A stretch of DNA of 64,000 bases from an uncultured candidate division Zixibacteria bacterium (lineage in GTDB: Bacteria > Zixibacteria > MSB-5A5 > GN15 > FEB-12). Of the stretch, positions 33,964 through 55,452 are shown one piece after another. The position numbers and the translations under genes are program-made. The DNA lies in NCBI GenBank assembly GCA_963735035.1, contig CAVTJJ010000003.1, forward strand, positions 832,001 through 896,000. The letters run 5' to 3'. The notes under the pieces are model-generated. The model saw only the letters and a program-made list of their open reading frames with translations. It did not search any database and had not been told where the DNA came from. How positions within the stretch are numbered: position 1 is the stretch's first letter; the number at the start of each line of letters is the position of its first letter.

Positions 33964-35064
33964 TTAGTGAGCGGAATAAGTGCGCGGCTCTGATTTCACA
34001 GCAGCGGTAACGCCACTCGCGTTTCCCGTTCTGATGAAGTTCAGAGATGACTGGAGCAGGCCGAGAGCATATTCGGTATTGTGAATGCCCTCGGACCGGT
34101 CTTCCTTGACGAACATGTAGTTGTAAACCGCACCCGTGGAGTCTTTGCTCTTGACAATCCTATTACCCATTGGTGCGTAGGTGGTGTCAGCGGTCCCATC
34201 TTCGAACTCTTCGATGGAATAATCGGCCAGGCCGACGTCGTAAAGGGCGGCGCCGAGGGAATCAAGGTACTCTACGATAGACGTCTGCACGCCGGTAGAA
34301 TCAAAACCCTTCATCTCAGCGTTGTGGCAAGTGGACCTGTTGCATCCAACAAGATTCTGTTCTTCGCCCTCGACCGTCACGGCTGCCATGGTCCAGGTAT
34401 GTCCGCCCAATTCAACACCGACTGACGGCGACATGTGACAGTCAATGCAACCATCAACGGCAACATTGGAGTGGGGGGAGTTCGTATAGGTGTAACCGTC
34501 ATACTCGTAACCACCGCTGCCATTCAGCATATCGCCCTGCGGGCCGTGGTGCGGACCGAAACGCGACGAAAGCTTCACGCTGTCAGCAACAGTGGTTCGT
34601 ACATCCTTCCGGCTGTGATGACAATTCACGCAGAGATTGGCTTCACCATGATCGAAGACGTCGCCGTTAAGCAGCGTATACGGTTCAGTCACGCGAAGCG
34701 CCAGGGTTCCGGTGGTATGCGGGGCGTGGCAAGTGAAGCATCCGATAGACGAATAATGTGACGAGTCAAAGGGTACGTCGGTAATAGCAGAGATGAATCC
34801 CTCCGCCGTATGGCATTCCCCGCACGAACCCTCGCCGACATTGGCGTTGAGGATAGTCGTCGCACCTTCGCCGTGTTTCGAGTTAGCCCACTGTGTCTGG
34901 GCGGCTACCAGCTTTAGATCACCGTCGCCATGGCATTCCATGCAGGCGTCCGCGCCGGCGAAGGTATTGTCTTGTACGATGGTGTTGGTCACTTTCCGCT
35001 CGCAACCAAGCGCCAATATCAGCGAGGCGCAAAGCAGAATCGTGAATATGACTGTACGTTTCAT
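33964..35064 (-). CDS. Multiheme c-type cytochrome lipoprotein (5 CxxCH + 1 Cx4CH)
   Basis: Lipobox LALGC; CMECH, CGECH, CFTCH, CVNCH, CIDCH, CNRSTCH; C-terminal helical EDRSEGIHNTEYA. Confidence 0.9.
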   Translation of the reverse strand: MKRTVIFTILLCASLILALGCERKVTNTIVQDNTFAGADACMECHGDGDLKLVAAQTQWANSKHGEGATTILNANVGEGSCGECHTAEGFISAITDVPFDSSHYSSIGCFTCHAPHTTGTLALRVTEPYTLLNGDVFDHGEANLCVNCHHSRKDVRTTVADSVKLSSRFGPHHGPQGDMLNGSGGYEYDGYTYTNSPHSNVAVDGCIDCHMSPSVGVELGGHTWTMAAVTVEGEEQNLVGCNRSTCHNAEMKGFDSTGVQTSIVEYLDSLGAALYDVGLADYSIEEFEDGTADTTYAPMGNRIVKSKDSTGAVYNYMFVKEDRSEGIHNTEYALGLLQSSLNFIRTGNASGVTAAVKSEPRTYSAH

Positions 35065-35076
35065 GTGTCCGTCTCC

Positions 35077-36645
35077 TTAGAATTGGACGTCTTTTATCAA
35101 ACTAACTTCTACTATATTCGCGGTGTAATACTTGTCCCCCAGCAGGAAATCGTCGTAGTTGAATACATCGTAGCGCGCCTCCAGCCGATGCCCCTTCGGG
35201 AACCGGTACGACACGCCAAGATCAACGCTGAACTTCTCGATATCCTGATCGCGTCTGCTGCGGTAGTACGTTCCCCCTCCATCGACCGTGAAATTCTTCC
35301 AGGCCACCGGATAAACGTGTCCGGTGAGAAGGTGATCGATGAAGTTGTAACTCGTGACGTCACTCCGGTTGTTATAGGACCCGTCGTAGTAGGAATACGT
35401 AAAGGTCAAGCGTCCCAGCTTCGAACGAGTCAGGTTCACCTCGCTGGAGAGCACGTTGTAGTCAACCTTGCTGGTCAGATCGTCATTCTTGCGGGTACGA
35501 CCGTCCCAACGGGCGGATACATCGCCCCACTCCGGCTGAATGAACTTTGCCATGAGCGAATGGTGGGTCCGGTTTTCGTCGCCCAACAGCGTTACGCCGT
35601 CGGTGACATCGGTCTTGCGGGTTGAAAAACCGCCGCTGAAATACCACTTATCGGCCGGTTTCAGCCAGGCGTTGGCCAGCATACCGTTCAGTTTGGTGCG
35701 ATTTTCAAAATCGTCACCGGTCCGGCTTTCATATCCGACCCTGACACCACCCCAGTGGCTCCATGATTTTCCGAGCATAAGCGTATGGGAATAGTTGTCG
35801 ACCGTGCGTTGCGGTTCATTTCGCTCGGTGATAGCATAGATAAGCTTGTATTCGGCGAACAGGGTCGATGTAAAGTTGAATCTGGCATCGCCCCAGTACT
35901 GACTCGTCTTCAATTCAGTGGCGGACAGATCAGCCTTGTCCTTACGATAGTTCAATCCGCCCGAAACCTGGAGCTGTTCGCAGCGCGGCAGCTTGGAGGT
36001 GGCCTGAAGATTCAATAGATCGGCCGTGCGGTTCGCAGCCAGCGGCGTGTTGTCAGTGAAGTCAAAGCGACGATAATCCACCCGGAACTGGTGGCTGGCA
36101 TCTCCCACCTGGGCGCCAACATTATAAGTGTTCTGGGACCAATCGTTGCCGCGAGAAACGGTATCGCTGACCGCCGGCAGGACAAAGAAGTCCCGGCCGA
36201 ACTTGTCCATACGACCGTACCCGGCGTTGAACTTCACGAATTGATTAGGCTGATAATTGGCCTGAACGTTGGTCGCGCGACGGCGCGTATAGTCGCTGCC
36301 ACTGTCGCTGTAGATCCGACGATACTGCGTGTTGGTCACGCTCAAGCCGAAACTGCCGGGCTTGCCCAGCGAAAATCTGACATTACGGTTGTTGAGCGTA
36401 ATATTATTGAGGTCGGCCTTGAATCTCATGCCGCTGTCCCAGTTGTAGCGCCACTGGTTGAGCGAAACGCCGAATCCCTCGTAAGTATTGTAGGTCTCTT
36501 GATTGACCGCCCGGGATCCTTCCTCGTCGAGATAGGTATATCCCAGTTTGACCGAACCACCACCGTTACCGGCGGCATGGATCGCCGGGGTCACCAGGAT
36601 GGCGATCAAAGCGAACAAAGCCGTTGCGTAGTATTTCTGTTTCAT
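35077..36645 (-). CDS. Outer-membrane beta-barrel of a porin-cytochrome conduit (MtrB/PioB-like role)
   Basis: Signal peptide, amphipathic Tyr/Gly-rich strands, C-terminal Phe; sits between a decaheme and a lipoprotein cytochrome. Confidence 0.8.
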   Translation of the reverse strand: MKQKYYATALFALIAILVTPAIHAAGNGGGSVKLGYTYLDEEGSRAVNQETYNTYEGFGVSLNQWRYNWDSGMRFKADLNNITLNNRNVRFSLGKPGSFGLSVTNTQYRRIYSDSGSDYTRRRATNVQANYQPNQFVKFNAGYGRMDKFGRDFFVLPAVSDTVSRGNDWSQNTYNVGAQVGDASHQFRVDYRRFDFTDNTPLAANRTADLLNLQATSKLPRCEQLQVSGGLNYRKDKADLSATELKTSQYWGDARFNFTSTLFAEYKLIYAITERNEPQRTVDNYSHTLMLGKSWSHWGGVRVGYESRTGDDFENRTKLNGMLANAWLKPADKWYFSGGFSTRKTDVTDGVTLLGDENRTHHSLMAKFIQPEWGDVSARWDGRTRKNDDLTSKVDYNVLSSEVNLTRSKLGRLTFTYSYYDGSYNNRSDVTSYNFIDHLLTGHVYPVAWKNFTVDGGGTYYRSRRDQDIEKFSVDLGVSYRFPKGHRLEARYDVFNYDDFLLGDKYYTANIVEVSLIKDVQF

Positions 36646-36657
36646 CGCGCCGCCTCC

Positions 36658-37578
36658 TCAGTTCACACCGTGACACCAGCAACTCTGACCGTAGGTCGTA
36701 GAGATGTCGCTGGACAGCAGTTTGCGGGTGGTCGACGAGCCATGGATGTCGCTATGGCACGCCAGGCAGTCGATTCCGGCGTAGACGCCGCCGTGCGCCG
36801 TGTTATGTGTCGGAACCATGTGACAGTAGTTACAGATCTGAGACTTGGGCTGTCTCAGGAGCTGATCGTTTTCACTGCCGTGAGGATAGTGGCATTCCAT
36901 GCACCAGCCGCTCTCCGAGCTAAACGTGCTCGAACTCTGATGGCCGTACAGGAACGGGCCACTCTGCTCCATATGGCAAGAGTAGCAGTTAGCCGACGCT
37001 CCAAGCCCTATTTCCGGCTCCGAAACGCCCAGGAAGCGATGGCAACTCGTGCAAGTAAAGGTGCCTTCGATCAAAGGGTGGTTGGAGCGCTTGTGGAACT
37101 GGAGAGCGACCGATTCGTGGCATTTTTTGCACGGTTGATCACCGGTCCAGGCCGCCGCCTGGTGAACCGAATGGCAACTCGTGCACGACATCCCCAGCCC
37201 GGCATGAGGATCATGCCCGGCCATCCCCAACCCCGGATGAGGCTGGTGGCAGGTGGTGCAGGTTGAGCCGGTCTTCGAGGGATCCTGAGTCGCCGGATTC
37301 GTGATATTATCCTTTGAAGGATTCTCGATGTGGACCGGACCACCCTCGTGGCAAGATACGCAGGCAACGGTGTGGTTGCCCTTCAAGCCCAGAGCGTGGG
37401 TGGTTTTGGCCAGTCCGGCGTCGTAGCCTTCGTGACACGACAGACAGGTCGCATTGTCGACCCCTGCCGGCGCGGCCGGTGTTTCGCCCGCTGAAAGAGC
37501 GGCCGAAGTTAGCAATCCCAGTCCCGCGATCAATAGACCAAGCAGGAACCGGTGTGAATTTGGGTTTTTCTCCGTCAT
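36658..37578 (-). CDS. Periplasmic decaheme cytochrome c (MtrA/DmsE-like)
   Basis: Signal peptide; 10 CxxCH; GPFLYGH, CMECHYPHGS, CLACHSDIHGS; extra C-terminal CWCH. Confidence 0.88.
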   Translation of the reverse strand: MTEKNPNSHRFLLGLLIAGLGLLTSAALSAGETPAAPAGVDNATCLSCHEGYDAGLAKTTHALGLKGNHTVACVSCHEGGPVHIENPSKDNITNPATQDPSKTGSTCTTCHQPHPGLGMAGHDPHAGLGMSCTSCHSVHQAAAWTGDQPCKKCHESVALQFHKRSNHPLIEGTFTCTSCHRFLGVSEPEIGLGASANCYSCHMEQSGPFLYGHQSSSTFSSESGWCMECHYPHGSENDQLLRQPKSQICNYCHMVPTHNTAHGGVYAGIDCLACHSDIHGSSTTRKLLSSDISTTYGQSCWCHGVN

Positions 37579-37650
37579 GGCTTGTCCTGAAGAACCTTGT
37601 CCTTAGTCGACGTTTACATCCATGTACACGACACCTGCATTGGTGCGGGT

Positions 37651-37668
37651 TTGTGACATTTTTAACAA
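37651..37668. promoter_or_regulatory. Putative Rex operator
   Basis: TTGTGACATTTTTAACAA vs TTGTGAA-N4-TTCACAA (2 mismatches). Confidence 0.55.
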
Positions 37669-37694
37669 GATAAAAAAACTTTCCATGGTCATCT

Positions 37695-37722
37695 TTGTCG
37701 GCAATGATCCACCGAACCTTTA
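37695..37722 (-). promoter_or_regulatory. Putative sigma-28-like promoter upstream of the decaheme gene
   Basis: TAAA-N16-GCCGACAA on the minus strand. Confidence 0.45.
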
Positions 37723-37933
37723 GCTTTCCCAGTGACATACATGTCGTAACTGATTTGGACGGGGAATCCGATCATCCGGATCATCCAGCCGTAACCGCCT
37801 GAAAGCTAATCATCTACGCCGACATCACGTATCTTGAGCGGCACCCCAATCATCTGGATGATTGACGCTTAATCCCACACATAAAGTGCGAAGCATGCCT
37901 TACTGTGCGGAGCTTCCTATGTGATCCCAAGGC

Positions 37934-37967
37934 AAAAAAAGAGGAGGAGAGCTAAGCTCTCCTCCTC
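37934..37967 (-). terminator. Strong intrinsic terminator after the OmcS-like gene
   Basis: GAGGAGGAGAGC-TTA-GCTCTCCTCCTC followed by T7 on the minus strand. Confidence 0.9.
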
Positions 37968-37989
37968 GGAAATACCCACGTATCGTGTC

Positions 37990-39015
37990 TTACGGCAGGT
38001 TCAGAGCAACGGTACCCTGAGAATGGCACTGCTGACAGACAACTTTCGGAGCCGTTCCATCGCCTTCTTCGTCAATCGCGGCAGCGCCGGTAGCGAAGAT
38101 CAAGCCAAAGGCATTCTGGTTGCCGTGGCCCTTGTGGCAGCTAAAGCAGCTCGGCGTCAGATCGGCCGGAGCGGTCGCAAAGTTGGTACCCTGCGTACCC
38201 CAGTCACCGGTGGAGCTCATGACCTTGACGCGGTAGGGGCGGTTGCTGAAGCGACGAGTCGCACCAACGCTGATGTTGGCACCAGCGGTTGGGTGACGCA
38301 CCCAGGCGCTGTCGGTCATGTTGTACATGTTGGCGTTCGACGAGTTGCCGTGGAAATTCGTGTGGCAGTCGCGGCAGAAAGCAGCATAGGCCGACGAATC
38401 CTGGTACGGCTCGTTGAAATCGATATTGTCGACACTGTAATGGTCAGCAATCGCGGCACTGCGCTGGAAGACAGCCGTGGCCAGATTGTTGGTGCCGGTT
38501 GAATAGGTAATGTAATGACGGGCTGAGGATCCCACACCGCTAGAACGGGTATTGCGATAGTAAGCGTTGCCGTGCACGGTATGGCAGTTGGTGCAGCTCA
38601 AACCGTCGGCATTGCTCCAGGTACCGCCCGGGGCGACGTCAGTCGAGCCAATGGTATGGCCGGTAACGTCGAAGTACGGGGCGGTATTATCCATGTTCAA
38701 ACCACCACCCATACGACCGTTGGTGTACTGGGTCCCACCGTTGGCGCCCATGACATCAGGGGCAAACGTCTGGTTGTTGTGACAGCCGAGGCAGAGGTTC
38801 GTGACCTCATCGCGCAACAGAGCGTCATTCGGGCCGTTCGGGGTTACAAAGTATCCCGATCCGGCTGAGTCGGCATTGTAACCGTGCTGTTGGCTGGAGT
38901 GCATTACGTGGCACTCATTGCAATTCAGAGTCGCCTGGTAATGATAGTCTCCGGCCATGGCTCCCGCTGCAAACAACGCAACGAGTCCAGCCGCTACCAT
39001 GAAAGTGTTTCTCAT
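37990..39015 (-). CDS. OmcS-like secreted hexaheme cytochrome c (candidate nanowire subunit)
   Basis: Signal peptide AMA|GDYH; YH-x6-CNECHVMH, CLGCH, GH..APGGT, CTNCHTVHG, CRDCH, RHP, CFSCHKGH, CQQCH; AAGGAG RBS before ATG 39015. Confidence 0.85.
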   Translation of the reverse strand: MRNTFMVAAGLVALFAAGAMAGDYHYQATLNCNECHVMHSSQQHGYNADSAGSGYFVTPNGPNDALLRDEVTNLCLGCHNNQTFAPDVMGANGGTQYTNGRMGGGLNMDNTAPYFDVTGHTIGSTDVAPGGTWSNADGLSCTNCHTVHGNAYYRNTRSSGVGSSARHYITYSTGTNNLATAVFQRSAAIADHYSVDNIDFNEPYQDSSAYAAFCRDCHTNFHGNSSNANMYNMTDSAWVRHPTAGANISVGATRRFSNRPYRVKVMSSTGDWGTQGTNFATAPADLTPSCFSCHKGHGNQNAFGLIFATGAAAIDEEGDGTAPKVVCQQCHSQGTVALNLP

Positions 39016-39169
39016 GAAGAACTCCTTAATAAACACACAGTACTGAGGTTGAAGTGTTATTGGACATCACTAAATTGGCTCTGCAAGCGGCCGGAATTGA
39101 AAAGTGCCGACCGAATCCAAACAGGAGAATCAGGTAGGAAATTTCTTCCTCAAAGAAGCGAGCGATGAC

Positions 39170-39202
39170 ACATCGGTGACAATATTGTGAAACTTTTAGC
39201 AA
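39170..39202 (-). promoter_or_regulatory. Putative Rex operator overlapping a weak sigma-28-like promoter
   Basis: TTGTGAAACTTTTAGCAA at 39185-39202; AAAAGTTT-N12-ACCGATGT on the minus strand. Confidence 0.5.
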
Positions 39203-39403
39203 GCCGTCGTAAAGCTTAAGCATTGTGGTCGTTTGTTTCGTCACAAATGTTACTCAGTAATCACTAGGTAAGTACTAGTTCAATCTGGCGTAAAGATATC
39301 AATATTACCCGATAAGTCAATACCAAATTATTCGAGAACTTGAATCTTTTTTGTCGTAAATCTATACCAGCTAGTAAGTTAAACTACTACTGGGAAGGTG
39401 GGA

Positions 39404-40381
39404 TTACCTGATCTGGTACTTTTGGATTCGTCGACCTGACCGCTCGACGACGTAAAACGTTGAACTGCCGTCACTTGCAATTCCGATCGGATACTGGAAG
39501 AACCCCGGCTGTCGGCCGTATGCCCCGATCATCGTAAAGAAATCTCCGGTCCCTAAATAGACCTTTACAGTCTGCCGTAATTCGTCCAGAATCAAAATGA
39601 ACCGCCCCCCCTGACCATCGGACAAAAACCCGAATCCGGCAGGAAACGTCAAATCCTGTCTTTCGACATCGTGGCCGCCAAAACCGAACAGATATTGTCC
39701 GAGCGTATCGAAGACTTTTACGGCCGGAGTTCCGTAGATATCGCCAACATAGACTTTTCCGTCGTACATCCCCAGGCCAACCGGCGTATTGAGCTGATTG
39801 GCGGAATCTCCCTTCGATCCGATTGTACGAACCAAGAGAAGGTCCTGATCCAGAAGCAGCACGGTGGTGCGATCACCGTTGACGGCCAGACAGAACCGGT
39901 CGGTCGCGTCGACGGTCACGCACGAGACTTTCAAGTGAAGGGCAGTGTCGCCCAGCAATTGGCTGGGCCAAACGTTGTCAATAACGCGCCCCCGAAAGTC
40001 CAGGAGATCAAGTCGATCACTGATAGCATCAAGAAGCAGTATCTCCCCCCGACTATTAACTGCCATCGCCTTCGGCTGTCCGGCGAGAGTTCTTCCCGAG
40101 GCGTCTCTCACGAAATGCCGGAAAGAGAACTTACAGGTCAACTGGCGATCGTAGATCAGCACCCGGCTATTTCCAGCGTCGGCGACAAACACTTCTCCCG
40201 CCGTAGTGTCAAACCAGATGCCGGCCGGATCTTTGAGCATGGAGCCGAAACCGTCATCGTAGGCGACCGCCGTTACGGAAATGGCCGCCTGCAACGAATC
40301 CGCATCAAGAGCCGACGCAGTCGTGGCGCCCAGACCCGACAGAACGATAAGACCAAGAGCACAGACTCGAATCGGGCTCAT
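39404..40381 (-). CDS. Secreted NHL-repeat beta-propeller protein
   Basis: DPAGI..VFVADAGNSRV, QPKAMAV, TPVGL, FPAGF, YPIGIA repeats. Confidence 0.88.
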   Translation of the reverse strand: MSPIRVCALGLIVLSGLGATTASALDADSLQAAISVTAVAYDDGFGSMLKDPAGIWFDTTAGEVFVADAGNSRVLIYDRQLTCKFSFRHFVRDASGRTLAGQPKAMAVNSRGEILLLDAISDRLDLLDFRGRVIDNVWPSQLLGDTALHLKVSCVTVDATDRFCLAVNGDRTTVLLLDQDLLLVRTIGSKGDSANQLNTPVGLGMYDGKVYVGDIYGTPAVKVFDTLGQYLFGFGGHDVERQDLTFPAGFGFLSDGQGGRFILILDELRQTVKVYLGTGDFFTMIGAYGRQPGFFQYPIGIASDGSSTFYVVERSGRRIQKYQIR

Positions 40382-40962
40382 TCACCGACCAGCTTAACAA
40401 GTTTCGCAACTGCTTTATCAACCACTTTGCGGGCCAGTTCTTCGCGCGATCTTACCGCCCGAATCCCGAACAATAATTCCGACTGATCACCTCGGGCGTT
40501 GGAAGCCCCGGTCCAGACGGTTTCGCGGGTTTTACAGCTAATTAGTCGAAGGTTCATCGAGACTTGCGGGATCTTCCCGAGGTAGGTGTTATCTGTCTCG
40601 GTGTATTCCAGAACCGTCCCGGTTATGATGTAATCAACCTTGAGACCGCCCGCGAGACTGTCGATCTGATCACCGGTCAGAAAGGTGCTCGACCGTACCC
40701 GATGTTTTCGCATTTGCTCGTAGGTTTGACCCAGTTCGGTCATTTCGAAAGCATTCGTGCTTCGCAGCGACAGAGCCAGCAGTTCGGTCATTTTCTCCGA
40801 GGCATTTTCCCGCGCACTCAGGTTTTCGAAGGGCATAATCGCGACTTTCGCACCCCGATGAATGGTTTCACCGCTGTATTTTCCGGCGGTAAAACTCGGC
40901 CCGCAGCCGGGTGCGACAAACAGGACAGCCATGATAGCCCACAACAGGCGTGGCATAAGCAT
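40378..40962 (-). CDS. CsgG/GNA1162-like lipoprotein
   Basis: Lipobox APGC; VAIMPFENLS, VDYIITGTVLEY, LRLISCKTRETVW. Confidence 0.78.
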   Translation of the reverse strand: MLMPRLLWAIMAVLFVAPGCGPSFTAGKYSGETIHRGAKVAIMPFENLSARENASEKMTELLALSLRSTNAFEMTELGQTYEQMRKHRVRSSTFLTGDQIDSLAGGLKVDYIITGTVLEYTETDNTYLGKIPQVSMNLRLISCKTRETVWTGASNARGDQSELLFGIRAVRSREELARKVVDKAVAKLVKLVGE

Positions 40963-40967
40963 ATCTC

Positions 40968-41561
40968 CTACTTCAGCACCAGCGCAAAGCGCGCCGCTAC
41001 TTCCCGGCAGACCTTGGTCGTGAGTTCGCCGAGCGTATGGGTTTCGCCGATCGATACAATCGGGAATTTCGGACCGCCACGACGGGTGGTTTCATAGCTC
41101 CACACCACCTTTCCCGAGTTACAGTCCAATAACCGGACTATCAGACCGACCGTCGGGAATTCGTCCGAACCGACCCGGACCATTCCGAAATCCCTGACCG
41201 CGCCCACGAAGACTCCCTGCACTCCGGTCGCCTTAGCGAGAGCGGTAAGCTCCTCCGCGGTGATTTCTTCAGGCAAATTGACCTTGTCGCCCTTGAGCGA
41301 CTCGCGTACCGCCTTGTAGAAATCGCCGGCCGGAGCTATTTCCACCGCATTCTTCATCAGAAGCTCGGTAATGAAACTCGAGGTGACTTTGTCCGACGCG
41401 GCACGGTCGCCGGTCAGACTGGCGAACGGGATAACTCCCACACGCTGGTAAAATCCAAAGTCGGCCTCGTTGTTCACATATTCCGGCGGTGGTGCACACG
41501 ACACAATTGCGAGCGCCGCCAGGGTAACAGCGATCAACCTGTAAACATGTTCTTTAAGCAT
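40968..41561 (-). CDS. CsgG/GNA1162-like lipoprotein (paralog)
   Basis: Lipobox IVSC; VGVIPFASLT, VQGVFVGAVRDF, VRLLDCNSGKVVW. Confidence 0.78.
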   Translation of the reverse strand: MLKEHVYRLIAVTLAALAIVSCAPPPEYVNNEADFGFYQRVGVIPFASLTGDRAASDKVTSSFITELLMKNAVEIAPAGDFYKAVRESLKGDKVNLPEEITAEELTALAKATGVQGVFVGAVRDFGMVRVGSDEFPTVGLIVRLLDCNSGKVVWSYETTRRGGPKFPIVSIGETHTLGELTTKVCREVAARFALVLK

Positions 41562-41573
41562 ACTTTCTTGCCG

Positions 41574-44453: not shown

Positions 44454-44460
44454 CGTGGCC

Positions 44461-45429: not shown

Positions 45430-45430
45430 A

Positions 45431-46339
45431 TTACTGCTCCTGACTTAGATCGTAAATGTCAAGGCGGCCGGTATCGTTGACAACGATCAATTTGTAGTCG
45501 GAAGTCGTTGTCATGTCGACCGGCCTTACGCCCGGTGTTCCGAAAAGCCGCGTGTCCAAAAGCGTGCCTGTCTGATCGTAGCGCCGAAACTGCGAATTGG
45601 TGGCGTCGGCCACCCAGATCATCTCGCGCGCATCCACAGTCGCCGCCGTAGCATCCCAGACGCTTTGCGGCGACGGTCGGTTCCAGTCCCCGGCCAACAA
45701 CGGTTTACCGTCGACGTCGAAAATCTGCACCGGGAAAGATCGATCACCAACTATCACCAGACGCCCCGAGGCCAGTTGGGCGCAGACCGTCGCCCGTCCG
45801 AGCTTGCCCCGTCCGGATCCGCCCGGTATTAACACGCCGACTTGTTTCCACTCGATATCAAAGTGTCTCAAGCCATCCGGGTTTTCCGTGATCGCAAGAA
45901 AAGTACGATCGCGACGTTGATATAAACGCAGGATTCGTCCCTTGCCGCCAAGAGTCGATGACAGATCGGCCACGGTATCGATCTTTCGGGGTTCTTCTTC
46001 GGAGACCCGAAACAGAAGTCGGCTATCCCACTGAGAGAATATCAATTCCCGATCGCTCGTCCAGACGAGGGCGGTCGGTTGAGCGAGCATGACCCCGTCA
46101 CCGACCGACCAGAGCACTTCGCCTCTGGAATCGAATACGTAAATGCGATTGTTGAATCGATCGGCGACCGCCACCCGCTCGCCACTGGGCGCTGTCGCCA
46201 GTTGCCCGGGTTTGGACACCGAAAAAGAAACCAGCCTGGAAATAAGCGGAGGCAACTCAGTGGCCGACTCGGCAATAACGGCGCATGTCGACAGCAACAA
46301 TGCGCTTACGAAAACTATTCTTGCCGATGCAGCCGACAT
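45431..46339 (-). CDS. Secreted NHL-like beta-propeller protein
   Basis: VAVADRFNNRIYVFD, QPTAL, IWVADATNSQFRRYD repeats. Confidence 0.75.
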   Translation of the reverse strand: MSAASARIVFVSALLLSTCAVIAESATELPPLISRLVSFSVSKPGQLATAPSGERVAVADRFNNRIYVFDSRGEVLWSVGDGVMLAQPTALVWTSDRELIFSQWDSRLLFRVSEEEPRKIDTVADLSSTLGGKGRILRLYQRRDRTFLAITENPDGLRHFDIEWKQVGVLIPGGSGRGKLGRATVCAQLASGRLVIVGDRSFPVQIFDVDGKPLLAGDWNRPSPQSVWDATAATVDAREMIWVADATNSQFRRYDQTGTLLDTRLFGTPGVRPVDMTTTSDYKLIVVNDTGRLDIYDLSQEQ

Positions 46340-46356
46340 AAGCGATGCTCATTGCC

Positions 46357-49300
46357 TCATTCGTGCTCTGTGCCGTGGCACAGATTGCAGAGTTTGCGGG
46401 TCTTGTCTGCTATCAGCAGATTCTTTTCCGTCGTAGAGTGCGGCGAATGACACCCGGTACATATTAATTCGGTACGAGTTCGTGGATCCAACACTCCCGC
46501 TCCCATCGGATGGAAATGCGTCTTCTGGGCGTCCTCATGACAGCCCGTGCACAATTTCATGATATCCGGTGAAGCGAGCAGGTTCTTGTAATCGCTCGAA
46601 TGCGGGTCGTGACAGGTGCCGCAATCCTCAAAGGCGGGCGGATGCTTCACCGGCCCGGTGAATTCTCTGGTATTGTGGCAGCTCAGGCACTGCTGGACGC
46701 CGTCCTTCTTCTGCAATCCGGCGCCGAATCCGACGTGCGGCGAGTGACAGGCAGTGCAGGAACCCGGGGTTTCGAGCGCCGGGTGCACGACCGCCTTCGA
46801 AGTCAGTTTGGTAGCATCGGCATGGCACTTGGCGCAGAGTTGAACGCCGGTGGCAACGAACTGCGTGGGCGATGAACCCTGATGGCAGTCGGGGCACCGG
46901 CCCTGAGTAAACGGCTTGTGGCTCTTCGGCAACAGCAGGCCGGTGGCGCCTTTCGCTCCCACGTGCGACGCATGGCAGCTCTGGCAATCGGTTCCGGAAA
47001 TGTCGAAGCCCTTGTGAGCGACACCCATCGCCGGTGACGTCAAATTATGACACTTGCCACAGAGCGCTTTCTTGTCGGTCACGAGCAGGGCTTTGTGGGT
47101 CCCGGCGTGGACTTCGTGACAGGCAACACACTTGCCGTTCTTCGCCGGCGGATGCACCTGGCCTTTATCAAATGATTCCTTGAGCGCCGAATGGCAATCA
47201 AGGCAGATTACTTCGGAAGGTTCCTTCAATAGCCCGGCATTGGCCGAGGCGTGCGGCTTGTGACATTCGGTGCATTTCTTCTCGGCGAACGGTCGATGTA
47301 CCGATGGCAGCGTGTCCAGCTTGCGCAGGTCGTCGTGACACTGGAAACACAACAGACTCGCTTCAGCTTTCAAGAGCTTGGGCTCGTCGGCGGCGTGCAC
47401 CCGGTGACAGCCGACACATTCGCCGCCCGCGAACGGCGGATGTTGCGTCGATAGTTTCATTTCGGCGGCCAGGCCGTCGTGACAGGTGGTACAGACCTCA
47501 GTGAGATTGGTCGCCAAAACAACCGAGCCGTCCGGGCCTTTGGTATGGCAGTCTTCGCAAGCCCCTTCGGCGAACGGCGGGTGCTCGATCGAGCGCACCA
47601 GCTTGGCAGCGGTCGATATATGCGGATTGTGACAATCCAGACAGTCGGCCTTGGCGACGTTGAATCCCTTGTGAGCGGCATCAAGAGTGGAGTCGACCGT
47701 ATGACACTGCACACACAATTCCGGCGCGGGAGCTTTGACAAATCCGGGCTGGTCGGATCCATGCGAGACGTGACAGGCGTCGCAATTGCCGTCCTTTACC
47801 GGCTTGTGCGCGATATTCTTCTGAATCCTGTCGCCCATCTCCTGATGGCAGACATAGCAGAGGGAGGCCCGCTGATCGGTGAGCGACGGCTGAACCATCA
47901 CCATCTGCCCGCTCACCAGCATGTTCGTAGACCGCCCGGCAATTAACCCGGCCCGTTCGGCGCCATGCGGATTATGACAGCCGGTGCAGTCGCCGTCTTT
48001 AGCCGCCGTATGCACATGGGCTTTCTGCAATCCCAGTTCACTGCTGTCGTGACAACCCACGCACAGCTTGGCGGGCGCCTCGGTCAGAAGATTCTGCTCG
48101 TTGCCGTAATGGGGCACGTGACAGGTCAGACAGTCTTCGCCGGCCGGGGCATGCTTGTGCTGCAAATTGAGCATGCTGCCGATCTGCTCGTGGCAACCTA
48201 GACAAAGAACGGGGCCCTCCGCCCGAAGCAACGCCTTCTTCGTACTGAAGTGCGGCTGATGACAGCCGGCACAATTGCCGGTCATGTAAGGCGAATGTGC
48301 CGAGGCCGCCGTCTGAGCTTTCGCATCCGGTTCGTGACAATCGGCACAGAGCTGCTCCACCGGTTTGCGCAACATTGCCTTGCCGATACCCTCGTGCGGC
48401 GAATGACACGACAGACAATCTTCTAGCGCGGCGTGGACCGACATCGATGAATCCCGTGTCGCCGCCATCGCGGTATGACACTGCAAGCAGAGCTCAGCTC
48501 CGTTCTTGCGCAACAGATGCGTCCGCTCGGAACCGTGCGGTTCGTGACAGGAACTGCACTGGCCCAACAAAGCCGGCTGATGCTTTACTAGATCCGATTG
48601 AGTAGTAATTTCGGAGTGGCAATCCCGGCACAGCTCTCCCTCACCCTTGACTAATAGTTTATCCTGGCGGGAACTATGCGGCTTGTGACAGTCGGAACAA
48701 TTGTCCGCACTTACTGCCGGGTGAGGCACCGGCTTCGAGGCGCCTGCCGCCTGTTGGTCGTGACAGGTCGCACAGACCGAATTCGCAGTAGTGCCGGCTG
48801 CGAAAGTAACCTTGCCGCTAGCATCGGGCAACGAATGGCAGGTCTCGCATTCACCGTCCGCAAACGGAGCATGCGCCCGGCGTGACAATAGACCCGGCTT
48901 GGCGGTCGCATGACCCGAGTGGCAATCAGTACAGCCCAGAGCCTCGGTGTTCTTGCCGGCATGAGCCTTGGCCATCGCCGCCGCATCATCTTTGTGACAG
49001 CTCATGCACAGAGCGCTTCCCTCCTGCTTCAACAGGGAGGGATGGGCGGAGTTATGAGCTTCGTGGCAAACCAGACAGTTCAGTTCGTTGAACGGCTTGT
49101 GCGGATGAGCCGCTTTCAGCGACTCAGACACTTCGGCATCATGACACAACAGACACGACGCCGGGTCATCGGTCCCCTCCACCACCGGATACAGCATCGC
49201 CTTCTTGTCCGAAGCGTGAGGACTGTGGCAATCCCAGCAGACCCCCTGTCCGACCGGCGTGTGAACTGTACCCGCGGCAAATTTTTCCTGCAGGTCTTTG

Positions 49301-49557
49301 TGGCAAGAGAAGCAAAGCTGATTGTCGTAGAATTTTAGAACCAGATTCTGAGCAAATCCGTGCCGCCCATGACAGGACTCGCACTGTTCCTTCTTGACCG
49401 GATCATGAACGAATTTTCGGGAACTGAATTCCGACTTCTGCTTCTTGTGGCAATCTAAGCAGGTCTTGGCGGCAAACAGGTCGGCGGCCGAGAACAGCAG
49501 CGTTATGGCGAAGAGAATACTAGAAAGACGAAAGAACCTCGATGAAGCGCGAGACAT
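46357..49557 (-). CDS. Giant periplasmic multiheme cytochrome c with 42 CxxCH motifs
   Basis: Signal peptide; 42 CxxCH counted by hand in 1066 aa, arranged as repeated H-x-P...CxxCH-x-PH...LL...LCxxCH pairs. Confidence 0.93.
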   Translation of the reverse strand: MSRASSRFFRLSSILFAITLLFSAADLFAAKTCLDCHKKQKSEFSSRKFVHDPVKKEQCESCHGRHGFAQNLVLKFYDNQLCFSCHKDLQEKFAAGTVHTPVGQGVCWDCHSPHASDKKAMLYPVVEGTDDPASCLLCHDAEVSESLKAAHPHKPFNELNCLVCHEAHNSAHPSLLKQEGSALCMSCHKDDAAAMAKAHAGKNTEALGCTDCHSGHATAKPGLLSRRAHAPFADGECETCHSLPDASGKVTFAAGTTANSVCATCHDQQAAGASKPVPHPAVSADNCSDCHKPHSSRQDKLLVKGEGELCRDCHSEITTQSDLVKHQPALLGQCSSCHEPHGSERTHLLRKNGAELCLQCHTAMAATRDSSMSVHAALEDCLSCHSPHEGIGKAMLRKPVEQLCADCHEPDAKAQTAASAHSPYMTGNCAGCHQPHFSTKKALLRAEGPVLCLGCHEQIGSMLNLQHKHAPAGEDCLTCHVPHYGNEQNLLTEAPAKLCVGCHDSSELGLQKAHVHTAAKDGDCTGCHNPHGAERAGLIAGRSTNMLVSGQMVMVQPSLTDQRASLCYVCHQEMGDRIQKNIAHKPVKDGNCDACHVSHGSDQPGFVKAPAPELCVQCHTVDSTLDAAHKGFNVAKADCLDCHNPHISTAAKLVRSIEHPPFAEGACEDCHTKGPDGSVVLATNLTEVCTTCHDGLAAEMKLSTQHPPFAGGECVGCHRVHAADEPKLLKAEASLLCFQCHDDLRKLDTLPSVHRPFAEKKCTECHKPHASANAGLLKEPSEVICLDCHSALKESFDKGQVHPPAKNGKCVACHEVHAGTHKALLVTDKKALCGKCHNLTSPAMGVAHKGFDISGTDCQSCHASHVGAKGATGLLLPKSHKPFTQGRCPDCHQGSSPTQFVATGVQLCAKCHADATKLTSKAVVHPALETPGSCTACHSPHVGFGAGLQKKDGVQQCLSCHNTREFTGPVKHPPAFEDCGTCHDPHSSDYKNLLASPDIMKLCTGCHEDAQKTHFHPMGAGVLDPRTRTELICTGCHSPHSTTEKNLLIADKTRKLCNLCHGTEHE

Positions 49558-49567
49558 AAAACCCCCG

Positions 49568-50143
49568 CTAGTGCGGCTTGGCCGTGGAGTCGGCCGGTAA
49601 CGGCTTCGATACCGGTTTTGGTCTCTCGACCTTCACGAACCGGTCACTTACTTTGAAGTCAACTAAACGGAAGCCGAACATGTCGTTCCGGCGAAAGTGC
49701 GGAGCATCGGTGAAAAAGAAACCCCAGCTCTCCTGTACCAACGAATCCCCGACCATCACGCGTACGCGCACCGCGGGGTTGTACAGAGTGTCCGACAACT
49801 GCATGACCTTACCGCTGTCAGTGATCGTGAAATGAGGATTGAACAGGATCACCTCACCCACATCGTCACCTTCACCAAGCGGGAACTTCTGGTTCATCTT
49901 GACCGTGTCAATTTGTGAAAAACCGGTGAAAACCCGGTGCTTGGTCTCAATGACGTAATAGTCATCAGGCGAAGCGACCGCCGCCGCCGGGGCAGCGTCA
50001 TGACTGGGCAACAAAACCGGCGTCTGACCGGCAGGAACTTTGACTGAATCAGTCTCGGCCAACGCGACCGCTACCGCTGCAACTGCAAATGTCACAACAA
50101 GTAGGGGTCGAACGGACCATTTCTCAAACCACATCTTTCGCAT
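49568..50143 (-). CDS. Exported protein with ResB-like beta-rich segment
   Basis: Signal peptide; NPAVRVRV...QESWGFFFTDAPHF resembles the ResB periplasmic region; start uncertain. Confidence 0.5.
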   Translation of the reverse strand: MRKMWFEKWSVRPLLVVTFAVAAVAVALAETDSVKVPAGQTPVLLPSHDAAPAAAVASPDDYYVIETKHRVFTGFSQIDTVKMNQKFPLGEGDDVGEVILFNPHFTITDSGKVMQLSDTLYNPAVRVRVMVGDSLVQESWGFFFTDAPHFRRNDMFGFRLVDFKVSDRFVKVERPKPVSKPLPADSTAKPH

Positions 50144-50275
50144 CAAAATAAGAGTAACAGGATCGGACCGGTATGTCAATACGTATTTGGGAATAGGATA
50201 CCAGGTAGTAATGATTGATAACCGCTCTTGATAAGCATTGAGCGTGGCCTACCGAAGCGATTCTTGTAAAATTCG

Positions 50276-51082
50276 CTATTCGAATTCGTGGCAGGCCAGA
50301 CAAAGCGCCCGGGGTGAACCAAGATCGATCAGCCGATTCTTCGTCACGCTGGTCAACTGGTGACAGGTCTGACACTCCATCCGACCACCGTACAACTGCA
50401 GGCGCGGATCCAAATCGCGACGTACCCGAACACCGCTCCGGAAATCGGCGTGACGCTCGATCTGTCCGACCGGGTGCATCCGGTGACTGCTGAACCGTGG
50501 GACGTTGGCCTGATCGATTCCCTCAACCGACAGGTTTTGTTCTTCGCCATGACAGAGGAGGCAGCTTTCCGACGAAGTCAGACCGGCCATGGCGGGATAA
50601 TTCGTATGGTACAACCCGGCCGCCTGTCGATGACCCTCGGAGAGCATGTCCATCCGGACAGTGCCGTCGTGGCAGGCCGAGCATACATCGGGTCCGGCCG
50701 AAAGACTCGGAGCAAATACATTCCCGCTCGCGCTGATCATACCCGGCTCGTGATACACATGACAATCGCCGCAGGGGCGGTTTGGATTTTGGTGGAAGGC
50801 GGCCGCAAGACCGTTCTGAGGGCCATCGGATTTGCCGTGGCACGACCGGCATCGTTGTGTCGGTGACGGCGCTACAGACGTTTCGTCCAACGAAGCCACC
50901 AGGCTATGGCAGACGGAGCAATCGATTTTCGCATGGCTGTTACTTGCAGTGGCGGGGGCTCCGATATTGTCGGTCCGGCCGAATACGCCCACTCCACAGA
51001 CGAAAACGATGACAATGCCATGACTCCAGAAGCGTGATCTTCTCATACGCCCCATATCGGCTCGGAAAGGGGCCGATGACAT
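50276..51082 (-). CDS. Multiheme cytochrome c (7 CxxCH)
   Basis: CSVCH, CRSCH, CGDCH, CSACH, CLLCH, CQTCH, CLACH; N-terminal hydrophobic segment; start uncertain. Confidence 0.85.
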   Translation of the reverse strand: MSSAPFRADMGRMRRSRFWSHGIVIVFVCGVGVFGRTDNIGAPATASNSHAKIDCSVCHSLVASLDETSVAPSPTQRCRSCHGKSDGPQNGLAAAFHQNPNRPCGDCHVYHEPGMISASGNVFAPSLSAGPDVCSACHDGTVRMDMLSEGHRQAAGLYHTNYPAMAGLTSSESCLLCHGEEQNLSVEGIDQANVPRFSSHRMHPVGQIERHADFRSGVRVRRDLDPRLQLYGGRMECQTCHQLTSVTKNRLIDLGSPRALCLACHEFE

Positions 51083-51335: not shown

Positions 51336-51890
51336 TTGACCGCAGCCAAACCCCTTTTCACACCCGTTCGAACCGCTTCGCAGAAACACTTGTTCGAACG
51401 ACTACTGGTAGGCGTCATTATCATGCTTATCGTGATGGCGTTCACCCCATCGAACGTCCACGCCGAGGACCCGTCGGCAACAGTCGCGACTATCGACTCC
51501 GTTCTCGCGCATTCTCTCGTCCTGAAAGATAAAGTTGTGTACGTCGACTTCTGGGCGTCCTGGTGTACGCCGTGCCGCCACTCCTTTCCCAAGATGAAAG
51601 AACTCGCTGAGAAATATGCCGGCAAGGGCTTTCAGATAGTCACGGTCAATCTTGATAAGAAGCACGCCGATGCCGAGAAGTTTCTCCGTGAGACACAGAC
51701 TGCTTTTCAGGTGGTATATGACTCCACCGGCTCCGTCGCCAAACTGTTCAAAGTCGACGCCATGCCGACCTCGTTCTTATACGGTCGTGATGGCCGTCTG
51801 CAAACGCGCTTTCGGGGATTCAAGGACGACGAGTCCGAGACTCTCACTACAACAATTAGTAATCTTCTCATTAGGGAGAATTCTAAATGA
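51336..51890 (+). CDS. TlpA disulfide reductase family protein
   Basis: VYVDFWASWCTPC, VNLD, MPTSFL; start uncertain. Confidence 0.92.
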   Translation: MTAAKPLFTPVRTASQKHLFERLLVGVIIMLIVMAFTPSNVHAEDPSATVATIDSVLAHSLVLKDKVVYVDFWASWCTPCRHSFPKMKELAEKYAGKGFQIVTVNLDKKHADAEKFLRETQTAFQVVYDSTGSVAKLFKVDAMPTSFLYGRDGRLQTRFRGFKDDESETLTTTISNLLIRENSK

Positions 51891-52120
51891 ACCGCAAGTC
51901 TCTGGCTGGAATGTTACTGATAGCCATCCTGGCCGCCGGCGCTTTCTCGGGTTGTGCCGGAGTGGGTGTGCAGGTATGGGAGCGCGACGTTCTCGCCAAG
52001 CGTGAGATGCAGCTCGACAACGGCGCTCTGGATAAAGCCCTGGATGATCATATCTACTTCAGCAAGGAAGCATCATCCGGTGGCAGCGGCTTTGGCGGTG
52101 GAGGCTGTGGGTGCAACTGA
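51887..52120 (+). CDS. DUF4266 lipoprotein
   Basis: Lipobox FSGC; WERDVLA, HIYFSKEASSGG..GGGGCGCN. Confidence 0.92.
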   Translation: MNRKSLAGMLLIAILAAGAFSGCAGVGVQVWERDVLAKREMQLDNGALDKALDDHIYFSKEASSGGSGFGGGGCGCN

Positions 52121-53409
52121 ACCGAGCCAGATCAATCAGGCCCGCTCTCGCGACCATTACGGCCGCCCTTCTCGGTACTGGTGTCAGCGCCCAGACGGAG
52201 CTATCCAAGGTTGAATCGTCGCTGCTAGTCTATTCCGAAACGAGTCGCGTTAAGGCGCTGGAAAGCGTTACCGGTCTCACCTGGAAACTCAAAAACGATC
52301 GCACGGCCAGTGTCAAGTTTACCTACGACGGCCTCACCGGTGCCTCGCCCAACGGCGCGGCCCCCTCGCGTAACATCCAGACCTTTACCCGCCCTTCGGG
52401 TCAGGCAGGCTACTCTGTAGCCCCGGGGACAATTCCTCTGGACAACACGTTCCACGACACCCGTCTGTCCCTGGATGGCAGCTTATCTCTGCCGCTGACA
52501 CGTCTCGTGGTCAGTTCGTTCGGCGGGCATTATTCGACCGAACATGACTATTCCTCTTTCGGCCTCAACTCCAGTCTGACTCTGGATCTCTTCCGAAAGA
52601 ATACGACTCTGGGTGTCTCGGGGTCGCTATCTCACGATCTGGTCTCGCCTAAGAGCGGAGCCCCGACACCTATGGCGACCCTTGTGGCACCAGTGGTAGT
52701 AGTCGGTGATGGCGAGGGCGAAGGGGAAGGCGGTGCTGTTGGTCCTGCCAAAACCAAGAACGTCTTCGACGCCGTCTTCAGTCTGACTCAGATTCTGGAT
52801 CGGAAGACCCTGGCTCGCTTCAATTATTCGTATAGCCGTTCGTCCGGCTATCTCAACGACCCGTACAAGATTCTGAGCGTAGTGCAGAATCCCAGCGATT
52901 CGGCGCCCGGTGAACCGGTCGGCTACATCTATGAGGCCCGCCCCGATCTGCGCACGAAATACGCCTGGTTCGGACAGATACGACGATACATCGCTGGAAA
53001 CACAATCGATCTATCATACCGCTACTTCTGGGATAACTGGGGAATCAAGTCTCGCACGACCGAGGTATTCTATCTCCAGCAACTGGGCCGGGGATATGCC
53101 ATCAAACCGCACGTTCGCTGGTACCAGCAGACCCAGGCCGACTTCTACCGCCAGTTTCTCGCGAGCGGCAGCCCGCTCCCTAAATACGCTTCGGCTGACT
53201 ACCGGCTTGGGGCTTTCGACGCTAACACGTACGGACTGCAGTTCATCATGCCGGTCGGCGAGCGAACCCATTTCAACATCGCCGCCGAGTACTACCGACA
53301 GATCGGCAAACGGGGACCGCCAAACGAATTGGGTGTACTGCGCGAATTCAAGCTGTTCCCGGACATGAGCTCGGTCATGGTCAGAACGGGGATCACGGTT
53401 GATTTCTAA
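52111..53409 (+). CDS. DUF3570 outer-membrane protein with flavinylation motif
   Basis: MQL start overlapping DUF4266; DGLTGAS, STEHDY, GYLNDPYK, YRYFWDNWGI, ASADYRL; C-terminal Phe. Confidence 0.88.
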   Translation: MQLNRARSIRPALATITAALLGTGVSAQTELSKVESSLLVYSETSRVKALESVTGLTWKLKNDRTASVKFTYDGLTGASPNGAAPSRNIQTFTRPSGQAGYSVAPGTIPLDNTFHDTRLSLDGSLSLPLTRLVVSSFGGHYSTEHDYSSFGLNSSLTLDLFRKNTTLGVSGSLSHDLVSPKSGAPTPMATLVAPVVVVGDGEGEGEGGAVGPAKTKNVFDAVFSLTQILDRKTLARFNYSYSRSSGYLNDPYKILSVVQNPSDSAPGEPVGYIYEARPDLRTKYAWFGQIRRYIAGNTIDLSYRYFWDNWGIKSRTTEVFYLQQLGRGYAIKPHVRWYQQTQADFYRQFLASGSPLPKYASADYRLGAFDANTYGLQFIMPVGERTHFNIAAEYYRQIGKRGPPNELGVLREFKLFPDMSSVMVRTGITVDF

Positions 53410-54301
53410 AACGGCGACAGAATTCGCGTTGACGCGCACGGACGACGGCTGGCTCGTGAGCTACTCCGCCATGGCCAGTCCCTGTGAGATACATTTGAAT
53501 TCAATATCAAAGAGCGAGGCCGAGGAATCGGCCTCGCTTGCCTTTTCCGAGACCCGGCGAATCGAACAGAAATACAGCCGGTATCGCACCGACAACATCA
53601 TCCACGCCATAAATCATTCGAATGGAAGTCCGGTTGAGGTCGACAATGAAACCGCACGTATATTCAACTACTCCGATCAGTGCTACCAGCTCAGCGAGCA
53701 TATGTTCGATATTACATCGGGCGTGCTTCGCAAAGCGTGGAAATTCGACGGGCGAGAGGTCAACGTCGACGAGACGCTGATTTCGTCGCTGCTCGATCTG
53801 GTCGGTTGGGACAAAGTAGTCTGGAGCGATGACAAGATTACGCTTCGGCCGGGGATGGAACTCGATCTGGGAGGCGTGGGCAAAGAGTACGCGGTCGATC
53901 GGGTAGCTGAGATGCTTTTCAGGGCCTGCAACTCACCTGTCATGGTGAATTTCGGCGGCGATATTAGAACCGTCTGCCCGACTGATCGGCCACATATCTG
54001 GACGATTGGAATAGAGAAGCCGGAGACTGAGAGCACGGCGGTTGGACAGATCGAACTAACCAGTGGTGGGGTCGCCACCAGTGGCGACGCACGTCGTTTC
54101 TGCCTCCATAGGGGCAAGAGACTTGGACATATACTTAACCCGCTCACCGGCTGGCCCGTGATAGGCGCGCCACGAAGTGTCACGGTCATATCGGATCTCT
54201 GCACCGAAGCCGGATTGTTTTCGACCCTGGCCATGCTTCAAGGCGAATCCGCCGAAGAATTCCTCGACGCTCAGCAGGTGAAATTTCACTGCATACGCTG
54301 A
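53399..54301 (+). CDS. apbE: FAD:protein FMN transferase (ApbE)
   Basis: AMASP, SRYR, FDITSG, LDLGGVGKEYAVD, NFGGD, ATSGD, HILNPLTGWP, SVTV. Confidence 0.93.
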   Translation: MISKTATEFALTRTDDGWLVSYSAMASPCEIHLNSISKSEAEESASLAFSETRRIEQKYSRYRTDNIIHAINHSNGSPVEVDNETARIFNYSDQCYQLSEHMFDITSGVLRKAWKFDGREVNVDETLISSLLDLVGWDKVVWSDDKITLRPGMELDLGGVGKEYAVDRVAEMLFRACNSPVMVNFGGDIRTVCPTDRPHIWTIGIEKPETESTAVGQIELTSGGVATSGDARRFCLHRGKRLGHILNPLTGWPVIGAPRSVTVISDLCTEAGLFSTLAMLQGESAEEFLDAQQVKFHCIR

Positions 54302-55433: not shown

Positions 55434-55452
55434 AATGCTTGGGCGTGTATAT

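Follow-up and report, generated by a model that had tools for sequence, protein, structure and literature searches.

The 64,000-nucleotide stretch of DNA analysed here (the window, taken from contig CAVTJJ010000003.1 of an uncultured Zixibacteria bacterium) carries three neighbouring sets of genes for electron transfer in the cell envelope. The central set, hereafter the core (37990-51082), is, judged from the sequence comparisons given below, a compact and divergent relative of the omcS-companion (osc) cluster of Geobacter and a variant of a known system. It is bordered on one side by an Mtr-like porin-cytochrome module (33964-37578) and on the other by an ApbE flavinylation operon (51336-54301, plus strand), which is transcribed divergently. 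An earlier note, made from the letters of this DNA, had proposed that the three sets form one undescribed, integrated system. We found instead that this three-module "island" results from local juxtaposition, and we consider it likely that it brings together three separate envelope electron-transfer modules which are neighbours by chance in this genome.

The core cluster and the Geobacter osc operon

In the open reading frame (ORF) map, which bears out the coordinates given in the earlier note, 14 co-oriented minus-strand genes follow one another from 51082 down to 33964, and not 13 as first counted, in agreement with the earlier note's own list of components, which sums to 14. The seven multiheme cytochromes encoded among them contain 5, 10, 6, 5, 6, 42 and 7 CxxCH motifs, giving a total of 81 that is identical to the hand count. 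Two of these proteins are hexahemes with six CxxCH motifs each: hexaheme 1 (37990-39036, minus strand), encoded by the last gene of the core (348 aa as an ORF, 341 aa in the public collection), and hexaheme 2 (44461-45429, minus strand, 322 aa). They are paralogs (28% identity, E 5e-22). Single-sequence phmmer searches against PDB gave no useful match for either of them or for the 5-heme protein, and profiles were needed. Profile A1, built from 32 homologs of hexaheme 1, matched OmcS (6ef8_A) with E 1.3e-8, the runner-up standing at 0.23; profile A6, built from 31 homologs of hexaheme 2, matched the same chain with E 2.4e-23 (runner-up 1.4e-5), in an alignment spanning OmcS chain residues 1-149 and 208-346. 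As a positive control, profile A1 recovered OmcS-type genes in five of five Geobacter-type genomes.

The agreement extends to the segment through which OmcS subunits are joined. The predicted mature N-terminus of both hexahemes (H..CxxCHxxH) aligns with mature OmcS from residue 1 (residues 1-16), and the His located three residues past the first CxxCH is invariant in both families (H39 in the A1 family, H41 in the A6 family). It aligns with the second His of the OmcS CHTMH segment and may accordingly be placed, by alignment, as a candidate inter-subunit ligand; the residue with this role in OmcS is presumably His16. In OmcS filaments, one subunit contributes a distal His ligand to a heme in the following one (PMC12307469, in its available passages). 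Eight His outside the CxxCH motifs are also invariant in the hexaheme 1 family. By these profiles, both hexahemes are OmcS-family proteins, which share with the OmcS subunit (PDB 6EF8/6NEF) the six CxxCH motifs in identical order, the N-terminal H..CxxCHxxH and profile-level homology, and differ from it by being about 60-85 residues shorter (322 and 348 aa including the signal peptide versus 407 aa for the mature protein).

Related genes were also seen outside the core. A third OmcS-family gene is present on another contig of the same genome (C4:762490-763617; a 375-aa ORF with 7 CxxCH), and a similar 7-heme gene stands directly beside hexaheme 1 in three relatives (G066, G022 and G266). An exact match to the N-terminal motif pattern of OmcS is present in metagenome-assembled genomes (MAGs) labelled Nitrospira/Nitrospirota, Myxococcales, Anaeromyxobacter and Desulfovibrio (L003, L015, L002, L016 and L022), which indicates that OmcS-type genes are widespread beyond Geobacter.

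The osc cluster of Geobacter sulfurreducens (GSU2504-GSU2493) was reportedly described by Shen et al. in 2025 (Cell Chem Biol 32:239). The osc operon is treated in PMC13194489, PMC12307469 and PMC13748539, and the available passages of the first of these assign folding to OscH, secretion to OscE/F/G and filament morphology to OscD, while OscC, OscI and OscJ are cytochromes. For a direct comparison, OmcS-type genes were located by a degenerate pattern derived from the OmcS N-terminus, and 32 kb of one Geobacteraceae MAG (L035/L036) were compared with the core. The cluster of this MAG encodes, in order, an OmcS-like hexaheme, a 4-heme lipoprotein, an OmcT-like hexaheme, a YncE-like propeller, a 767-aa protein, a 198-aa lipoprotein, a 431-aa protein, a peptidyl-prolyl isomerase (PPIase), a 26-heme and a 16-heme cytochrome, an NHL propeller and a second OmcS-like hexaheme. 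This order agrees with that of the osc operon as summarised in PMC13194489.

Several genes of the core have clear counterparts in this cluster. The largest, at 46357-49557 (minus strand), encodes a 1066-aa cytochrome with a signal peptide and 42 CxxCH motifs, of which a first part (residues 11-672) matches the Geobacteraceae 26-heme protein (BLASTP, 32% identity, E 3e-106) and a second part (residues 687-1061) the 16-heme protein (E 1e-54). As these two proteins are encoded by adjacent genes, and as 26 and 16 make 42, the 42-heme gene is a fusion. Two genes downstream of the barrel gene described in the next section encode lipoproteins, an OscF-like one of 197 aa (40968-41561, minus strand; lipobox Cys22) and an OscG-like one of 194 aa with a single domain (40378-40962, minus strand; lipobox Cys20). 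The first matches the 198-aa Geobacteraceae lipoprotein with 31% identity (E 2e-25); the second matches the 431-aa protein in its C-terminal half (residues 276-424, E 1.4e-12) as well as the 198-aa lipoprotein (E 4e-12). Hexaheme 2 matches the OmcT-like and OmcS-like proteins with BLASTP E-values of 9e-14 and 7e-10, respectively.

The remaining genes of the core are less close to those of Geobacter. Two NHL-type beta-propellers are encoded at 39404-40381 (minus strand; Pfam NHL, E 3.4e-11) and 45431-46339 (minus strand; NCBIfam NHL/ScyF, E 9.1e-13, below cut-off), in line with the two beta-propellers announced by the earlier note. Both match the 299-aa NHL protein of the Geobacteraceae cluster weakly (BLASTP E 1e-4 and 2e-3), and their similarity to its YncE-like 467-aa protein is not significant (E 0.064). 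The first gene of the core (50276-51082, minus strand) encodes a 7-heme c-type cytochrome with seven CxxCH motifs and cytochrome c7/c3-type Pfam matches, for which the 4-heme lipoprotein of the Geobacteraceae cluster gave a weak BLASTP match (E 2e-5). Between it and the 42-heme gene lies a gene for a 203-aa protein (49568-50179, minus strand) that had been called ResB-like. This name is not sustained, as the protein has a single N-terminal hydrophobic segment (residues 21-46) and no ResB match; the Pfam and NCBIfam scans returned no relevant family, and the Atlas gave sub-threshold leads to an unnamed cluster (0.88) and to clusters in which 13% and 32% of the members carry DUF2155 (0.80 and 0.78).

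Conservation of the core was examined by tblastn over 40 kb around the barrel gene in ten relatives belonging to several families. Both lipoprotein genes were found in 10/10 relatives, and the genes for the barrel, the two NHL propellers, hexaheme 1, the 42-heme cytochrome, the 203-aa protein and the cytochrome abutting the barrel in 9/10 each. Hexaheme 2 was found in eight, a ninth match (in G031) being a cross-match on the hexaheme 1 gene, and the 7-heme gene adjoins the core in 5/10. Nine of the ten relatives retain the core in order, with gene order identical throughout. Across the phylum, the barrel family occurs in 52/285 genomes (37/198 of those of high quality), and neither of the two other genomes of this genus (77% and 100% complete) has it. 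The core is a conserved, patchily distributed cluster of 10-11 genes.

Considering both gene content and arrangement, the core and the osc cluster have in common the OmcS-family hexahemes, a giant periplasmic multiheme cytochrome, the order barrel-sized protein, lipoprotein, lipoprotein, and an NHL propeller adjoining an OmcS-like gene. They differ in that the 26-heme and 16-heme genes are fused here, that the OscG-like protein consists of one domain (194 versus 431 aa), that the barrel has 596 aa instead of 767 with weak, N-terminal similarity, that the core includes two extra conserved genes (for the 203-aa protein and for a 5-7-heme cytochrome abutting the barrel) and that the host belongs to the Zixibacteria. 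The OmcS profile matches together with the osc-like homologies uphold the proposal of an OmcS-type locus with companion genes.

Several observations weigh against this assignment. The cluster lacks an OscH-like PPIase, no Rotamase domain being found in any of its 14 proteins, while the Geobacteraceae cluster has one; it also lacks an OscD-like YncE-type propeller, its two propellers being of the NHL type. The Osc letters attached to the genes of the Geobacteraceae MAG follow gene order, not the primary paper, and are putative. For the barrel, comparison of its profile with that of the Geobacter-type 767-aa protein gave an hhalign probability of 88.5% (E 2.7e-6, 180 N-terminal columns), a result that rests on a 5-sequence profile and concerns the N-terminal third only; against the single 767-aa sequence the probability was 1.4%, and the barrel profile (A2) had no match at E <= 10 in any of five Geobacter-type genomes. 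The ten relatives used for synteny are a sample of the 51 other barrel-bearing genomes. Finally, the AlphaFold2 (AF2) model of hexaheme 1, computed without hemes, is poor (predicted local distance difference test, pLDDT, 52.9), so that the OmcS fold is not confirmed by structure; 6ef8_A was the top Foldseek match of this model at a non-significant E of 0.093, in a search that carries little weight because of the poor heme-less model.

These last points bear on another explanation, in which the hexahemes form no filaments and serve as terminal reductases or oxidases, either as monomers or attached to the surface, in an ordinary outer-surface cytochrome system. Their shorter length and poor fold model would fit such a role, our literature searches found no filament evidence for any Zixibacterium, and the necessity of OmcS filaments is disputed in Geobacter work itself (PMC13194489, in the passages available). 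Against it stand the N-terminal H..CxxCHxxH, invariant in both families and aligned with the OmcS segment that bears the inter-subunit His ligand, and the homologs of Geobacter filament-assembly accessory genes that are conserved alongside. We regard the absence of filaments as unlikely, though a serious alternative, and retain the reading of the core as an osc relative.

The large barrel and its neighbours

The gene at 41574-43364 (minus strand), in the position of OscE by gene order, encodes a large outer-membrane beta-barrel of 596 aa that matched no Pfam family. Its AF2 model is all-beta and confident (mean pLDDT 86.2); it counts about 29 strand elements and lacks a plug domain. Foldseek placed MtrB first (6r2q_B, E 5.5e-11, TMq 0.51), with LptD and TonB-dependent receptors next. 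VIA re-ranking returned generic large barrels (receptors, ushers, porins and LptD, Z 13-17), with MtrB absent among the 50 matches listed, and singled out no family. The safe statement, based on the predicted structure, is that it would be a very large outer-membrane barrel and not "an MtrB". Of the two beta-barrels proposed in the earlier note, this one is supported by the model, while the other (35077-36645) has a weak MtrB_PioB match only. The two adjacent lipoproteins had been described as CsgG-like. Their Cys lipoboxes bear out the lipoprotein part of this description, whereas no CsgG family was matched at E <= 0.01 in Pfam or NCBIfam; they are paralogs of each other (E 9e-14) and matched LpoB weakly (E 3.5e-4 for 40378-40962 and E 6.8e-3 for the other). 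A predicted complex of the barrel with both lipoproteins stayed below the mark of 0.32 (scores of 0.24 and 0.22, without controls) and constitutes evidence neither way.

Upstream of the barrel gene, 43365-44561 (minus strand; probable start near 44453) encodes a multiheme cytochrome with five CxxCH motifs. An alignment with four relatives shows an additional C-x7-CH site that is kept in three of them and is CxxCH in the fourth, and the final CxxCH of the relatives is CxxKH in this genome. Homologs in relatives have 6, 7 or 12 CxxCH motifs.

This arrangement suggests an alternative in which the barrel is a second porin-cytochrome conduit, with the abutting cytochrome lodged inside it as MtrA is in MtrB. 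Such a conduit would connect the periplasmic 42-heme protein either with the foot of an OmcS-family filament or with monomers bound at the surface, and the lipoproteins would be plugs or assembly factors, like LptE for LptD. The first rank of MtrB in Foldseek, ahead of LptD from LptD-LptE complexes, speaks for this view, as do the plug-less make-up of the barrel and the gene pair itself, in which the stop of the cytochrome gene (43365) abuts the start of the barrel gene (43364) and which remains adjacent in the relatives examined. We nevertheless judge it improbable. Indeed, the VIA re-ranking does not single out MtrB; the abutting cytochrome is heme-sparse, with 5-7 sites in about 360 aa compared with 10 in 306 aa for the MtrA-like protein; and the barrel weakly, and the lipoproteins clearly, are homologous to Geobacter-type proteins that Shen et al. 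(2025) proposed as a secretion channel, according to PMC13194489. If the barrel and its abutting cytochrome were a conduit after all, the secretion-channel reading of OscEFG would change.

Returning to the core as an osc relative, we infer filament formation, export through the barrel and the direction of electron flow from the homology, gene order and conservation described above. Briefly, Sec export and heme attachment would be ensured by machinery encoded elsewhere. The 42-heme protein (an OscI/OscJ-like fusion) and the 7-heme protein would relay electrons across the periplasm, and the barrel with the two small lipoproteins (OscE/F/G-like) would constitute an outer-membrane station. The two OmcS-family hexahemes would pass through this station, or be anchored at it, and polymerise head to tail into an extracellular heme wire, with the two NHL propellers as putative helpers. 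The neighbouring module at 33964-37578 would be an independent conduit, in which a porin houses the MtrA-like decaheme and electrons pass on to a lipoprotein cytochrome at the surface, and the genes at 51336-54301 correspond to the published thioredoxin/DUF4266/DUF3570/ApbE flavinylation system.

Linkage of the three modules

The Mtr-like module consists of three minus-strand genes. The first (36658-37578) encodes an MtrA/DmsE-like periplasmic decaheme cytochrome with ten CxxCH motifs, which matches 6r2q_A, chain A of the Mtr complex (phmmer E 7.4e-22), and scores 134.5 bits against TIGR03508 (cut-off 192.2). The second (35077-36645) encodes an outer-membrane porin ending in ...VQF that scores 18.8 bits against MtrB_PioB (cut-off 23). 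The third (33964-35064) encodes a 366-aa lipoprotein cytochrome with five CxxCH motifs and the lipobox LALGC, likely the outer-surface partner; it matched no MtrC/OmcA family in NCBIfam, including TIGR03507, and is a lipoprotein cytochrome of another type. The module shares with Shewanella MtrCAB (PDB 6R2Q) a homologous decaheme and the order decaheme, porin, lipoprotein cytochrome, and differs from it by a porin that is marginally MtrB_PioB-like and by a surface partner of 5 hemes and 366 aa. The MtrAB-type conduit announced by the earlier note is thus secure for the MtrA homolog and weak for the MtrB likeness of the porin. Two results count against the latter: 3/11 members of the porin family match MtrB_PioB (best E 5.1e-6), which makes the homology weak, and the porin profile had no match in PDB, where MtrB was not recovered. 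An ORF of 143 aa (37307-37738, minus strand) that overlaps the start of the decaheme gene has neither heme motif nor signal peptide and is unlikely to be a gene.

On the other side of the core, the divergent operon contains the four families that had been recognised from the letters. It encodes a TlpA/ResA-like thioredoxin-fold protein (51336-51890, plus strand; Redoxin E 7.2e-18, ResA subfamily E 7.3e-24, below cut-off), a 77-aa DUF4266 lipoprotein with a C-terminal CxC (51887-52120, plus strand; PF14086 E 7.1e-22; ending in ...GGGCGCN), a DUF3570 protein (52111-53409, plus strand; PF12094, 390.5 bits) and an ApbE FAD:protein FMN transferase (53399-54301, plus strand; PF02424, 215.7 bits). 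In the available text of Meheust et al. (2021, eLife, PMC8238504), ApbE, DUF3570, DUF4266 and thioredoxin make up a flavinylation system whose function is uncertain, with DUF3570 as an ApbE substrate family. Like the DsbD-type DUF3570 system of that paper, the operon unites ApbE, DUF3570, DUF4266 (CxC) and a thioredoxin-like protein. It differs by having one exact flavinylation motif versus two in the paper (the only [ST]GA[ST] site found by regular expression is TGAS at residue 76 of the DUF3570 protein) and by the lack of an adjacent DsbD, a DsbD_2 gene being situated about 32 kb away at 18318-19013. The DsbD_2-type membrane protein encoded there could be the electron donor expected by the published model. 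Beyond the operon, an Rrf2 regulator and a hemerythrin gene (55014-56097) precede a quinol-type nitric oxide reductase that appears to be divided between two adjacent ORFs, one with the NorB cytochrome c-like domain (56167-57237) and one with COX1 (57316-58437); the division may stem from a frameshift, mark a pseudogene or be genuine.

The integrated system first proposed would join filament locus, Mtr-like conduit and flavinylation operon and couple them functionally; for example, the surface cytochrome of the conduit would charge the filament, and the flavinylated DUF3570 protein would be a further outer-membrane redox partner. The arrangement in this genome is in its favour, since the modules are contiguous, the Mtr-like module is co-oriented with the core and begins 412 bp past the hexaheme 1 gene, and the ApbE operon diverges from the first core gene over about 250 bp. 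Such adjacency and common orientation could still reflect co-use, which tells against a chance association. The comparison with relatives, however, largely refutes integration. None of the ten core neighbourhoods contained the porin, the lipoprotein cytochrome, TlpA, DUF4266, DUF3570 or ApbE. In six relatives where the core barrel and the porin share one contig, they are about 91-646 kb apart, and DUF3570, present in 4/5 relatives checked, was on other contigs in 4/4. The phyletic patterns are also unlike, with 52/285 phylum genomes for the core barrel against 169/285 for the porin family. Moreover, the Mtr-like module is conserved on its own: of ten relatives, nine have the MtrA-like gene and eight the lipoprotein gene beside the porin. 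Nine "MtrA-like" tblastn matches (23-28% identity) lay inside 42-heme genes and were set aside as cross-matches, not MtrA orthologs.

Within the locus, a strong terminator-like hairpin (37941-37967, minus strand) stands between the core and the Mtr-like module, 23 nt past the hexaheme 1 stop. Its 12-bp stem includes 8 G-C pairs, the loop has 3 nt and a T7 tail follows; among the 19 terminator-like sites of the region, a total that is no higher than in shuffled sequences (18.6 +/- 5.2), it is the strongest. A promoter-like site was also seen upstream of hexaheme 1 (39320-39293), and together the two elements hint, as predicted from sequence, that hexaheme 1 may be its own transcription unit. 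On the far side of the Mtr-like module, an IS200-like (Y1) transposase gene (33248-33772, plus strand; Pfam Y1_Tnp, E 2e-9) fits a local rearrangement and may mark the one that joined the modules.

Because the modules co-occur in none of the ten neighbourhoods, the barrels are distant, DUF3570 lies elsewhere and a hairpin separates core and conduit, the three modules are unlinked in relatives, which is the outcome that the earlier note itself had named as contrary to its proposal. We hold an integrated system to be very improbable. Little more probable, in our opinion, is a last possibility, namely that the core is a natural minimal OmcS-filament system that was brought beside the conduit to share a surface electron path, or whose barrel and abutting 5-7-heme cytochrome wire the base of the filament. 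Such a minimal system may do without PPIase and YncE propeller and consist of a single barrel with two lipoproteins of one domain each, the NHL propellers and, as a feeder, the fused 42-heme protein. Three separate modules, with the core as a compact osc relative, remain our preferred interpretation.

Host organism and significance

The source contig measures 989 kb in a genome of 3.6 Mb that is 97% complete, and base composition is uniform over the window; there is thus no sign of a chimera. The RpoB relatives show 73-91% identity and, among the 120 listed, 15 of the 23 rows with a taxon name are Zixibacteria/Zixiibacteriota, the remainder being "bacterium" (5), Acidobacteriota (1), Deferrimicrobium (1) and GN15 (1). 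The protein encoded at 13418-15712, which had been taken for a secreted protein of the Fibrobacterota-Chlorobiota-Bacteroidota (FCB) type, carries a type IX secretion system C-terminal sorting domain (Por_Secre_tail, E 7.7e-9) and is consistent with this group. By these markers the host is not Geobacter-like, in line with the earlier note.

The claim that one locus would hold a full path from periplasm to surface to filament is overstated, since the locus contains 7 of the 19 ORFs with at least 3 CxxCH motifs in the genome (81 of 243 motifs), and no inner-membrane quinol oxidase was recognised among its genes. Further multiheme clusters are located at C3:739633-754326 (13, 11, 9, 37 and 20 CxxCH) and C1:10406-15262 (11 and 19 CxxCH).

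In our literature searches on Zixibacteria with OmcS or extracellular electron transfer, the cluster appeared undescribed in this phylum, although the primary osc paper may cover it. All three modules are of kinds already described in the accessible parts of the literature, namely osc, mtrAB, which has been reported in Zixibacteria MAGs (PMC9769843), and DUF3570 flavinylation (PMC8238504), and no new kind of system is revealed. The finding extends the OmcS/osc filament machinery to the Zixibacteria, an uncultured phylum that has been linked to iron cycling on repeated occasions (PMC8478452 and PMC9769843, in the parts available). It indicates which parts are retained in a stripped-down version: the hexahemes, the barrel, the two small lipoproteins, the NHL propellers and the giant periplasmic cytochrome. 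These parts constitute a candidate minimal set with which nanowires might be produced in another host and the role of the OscEFG-like module probed.

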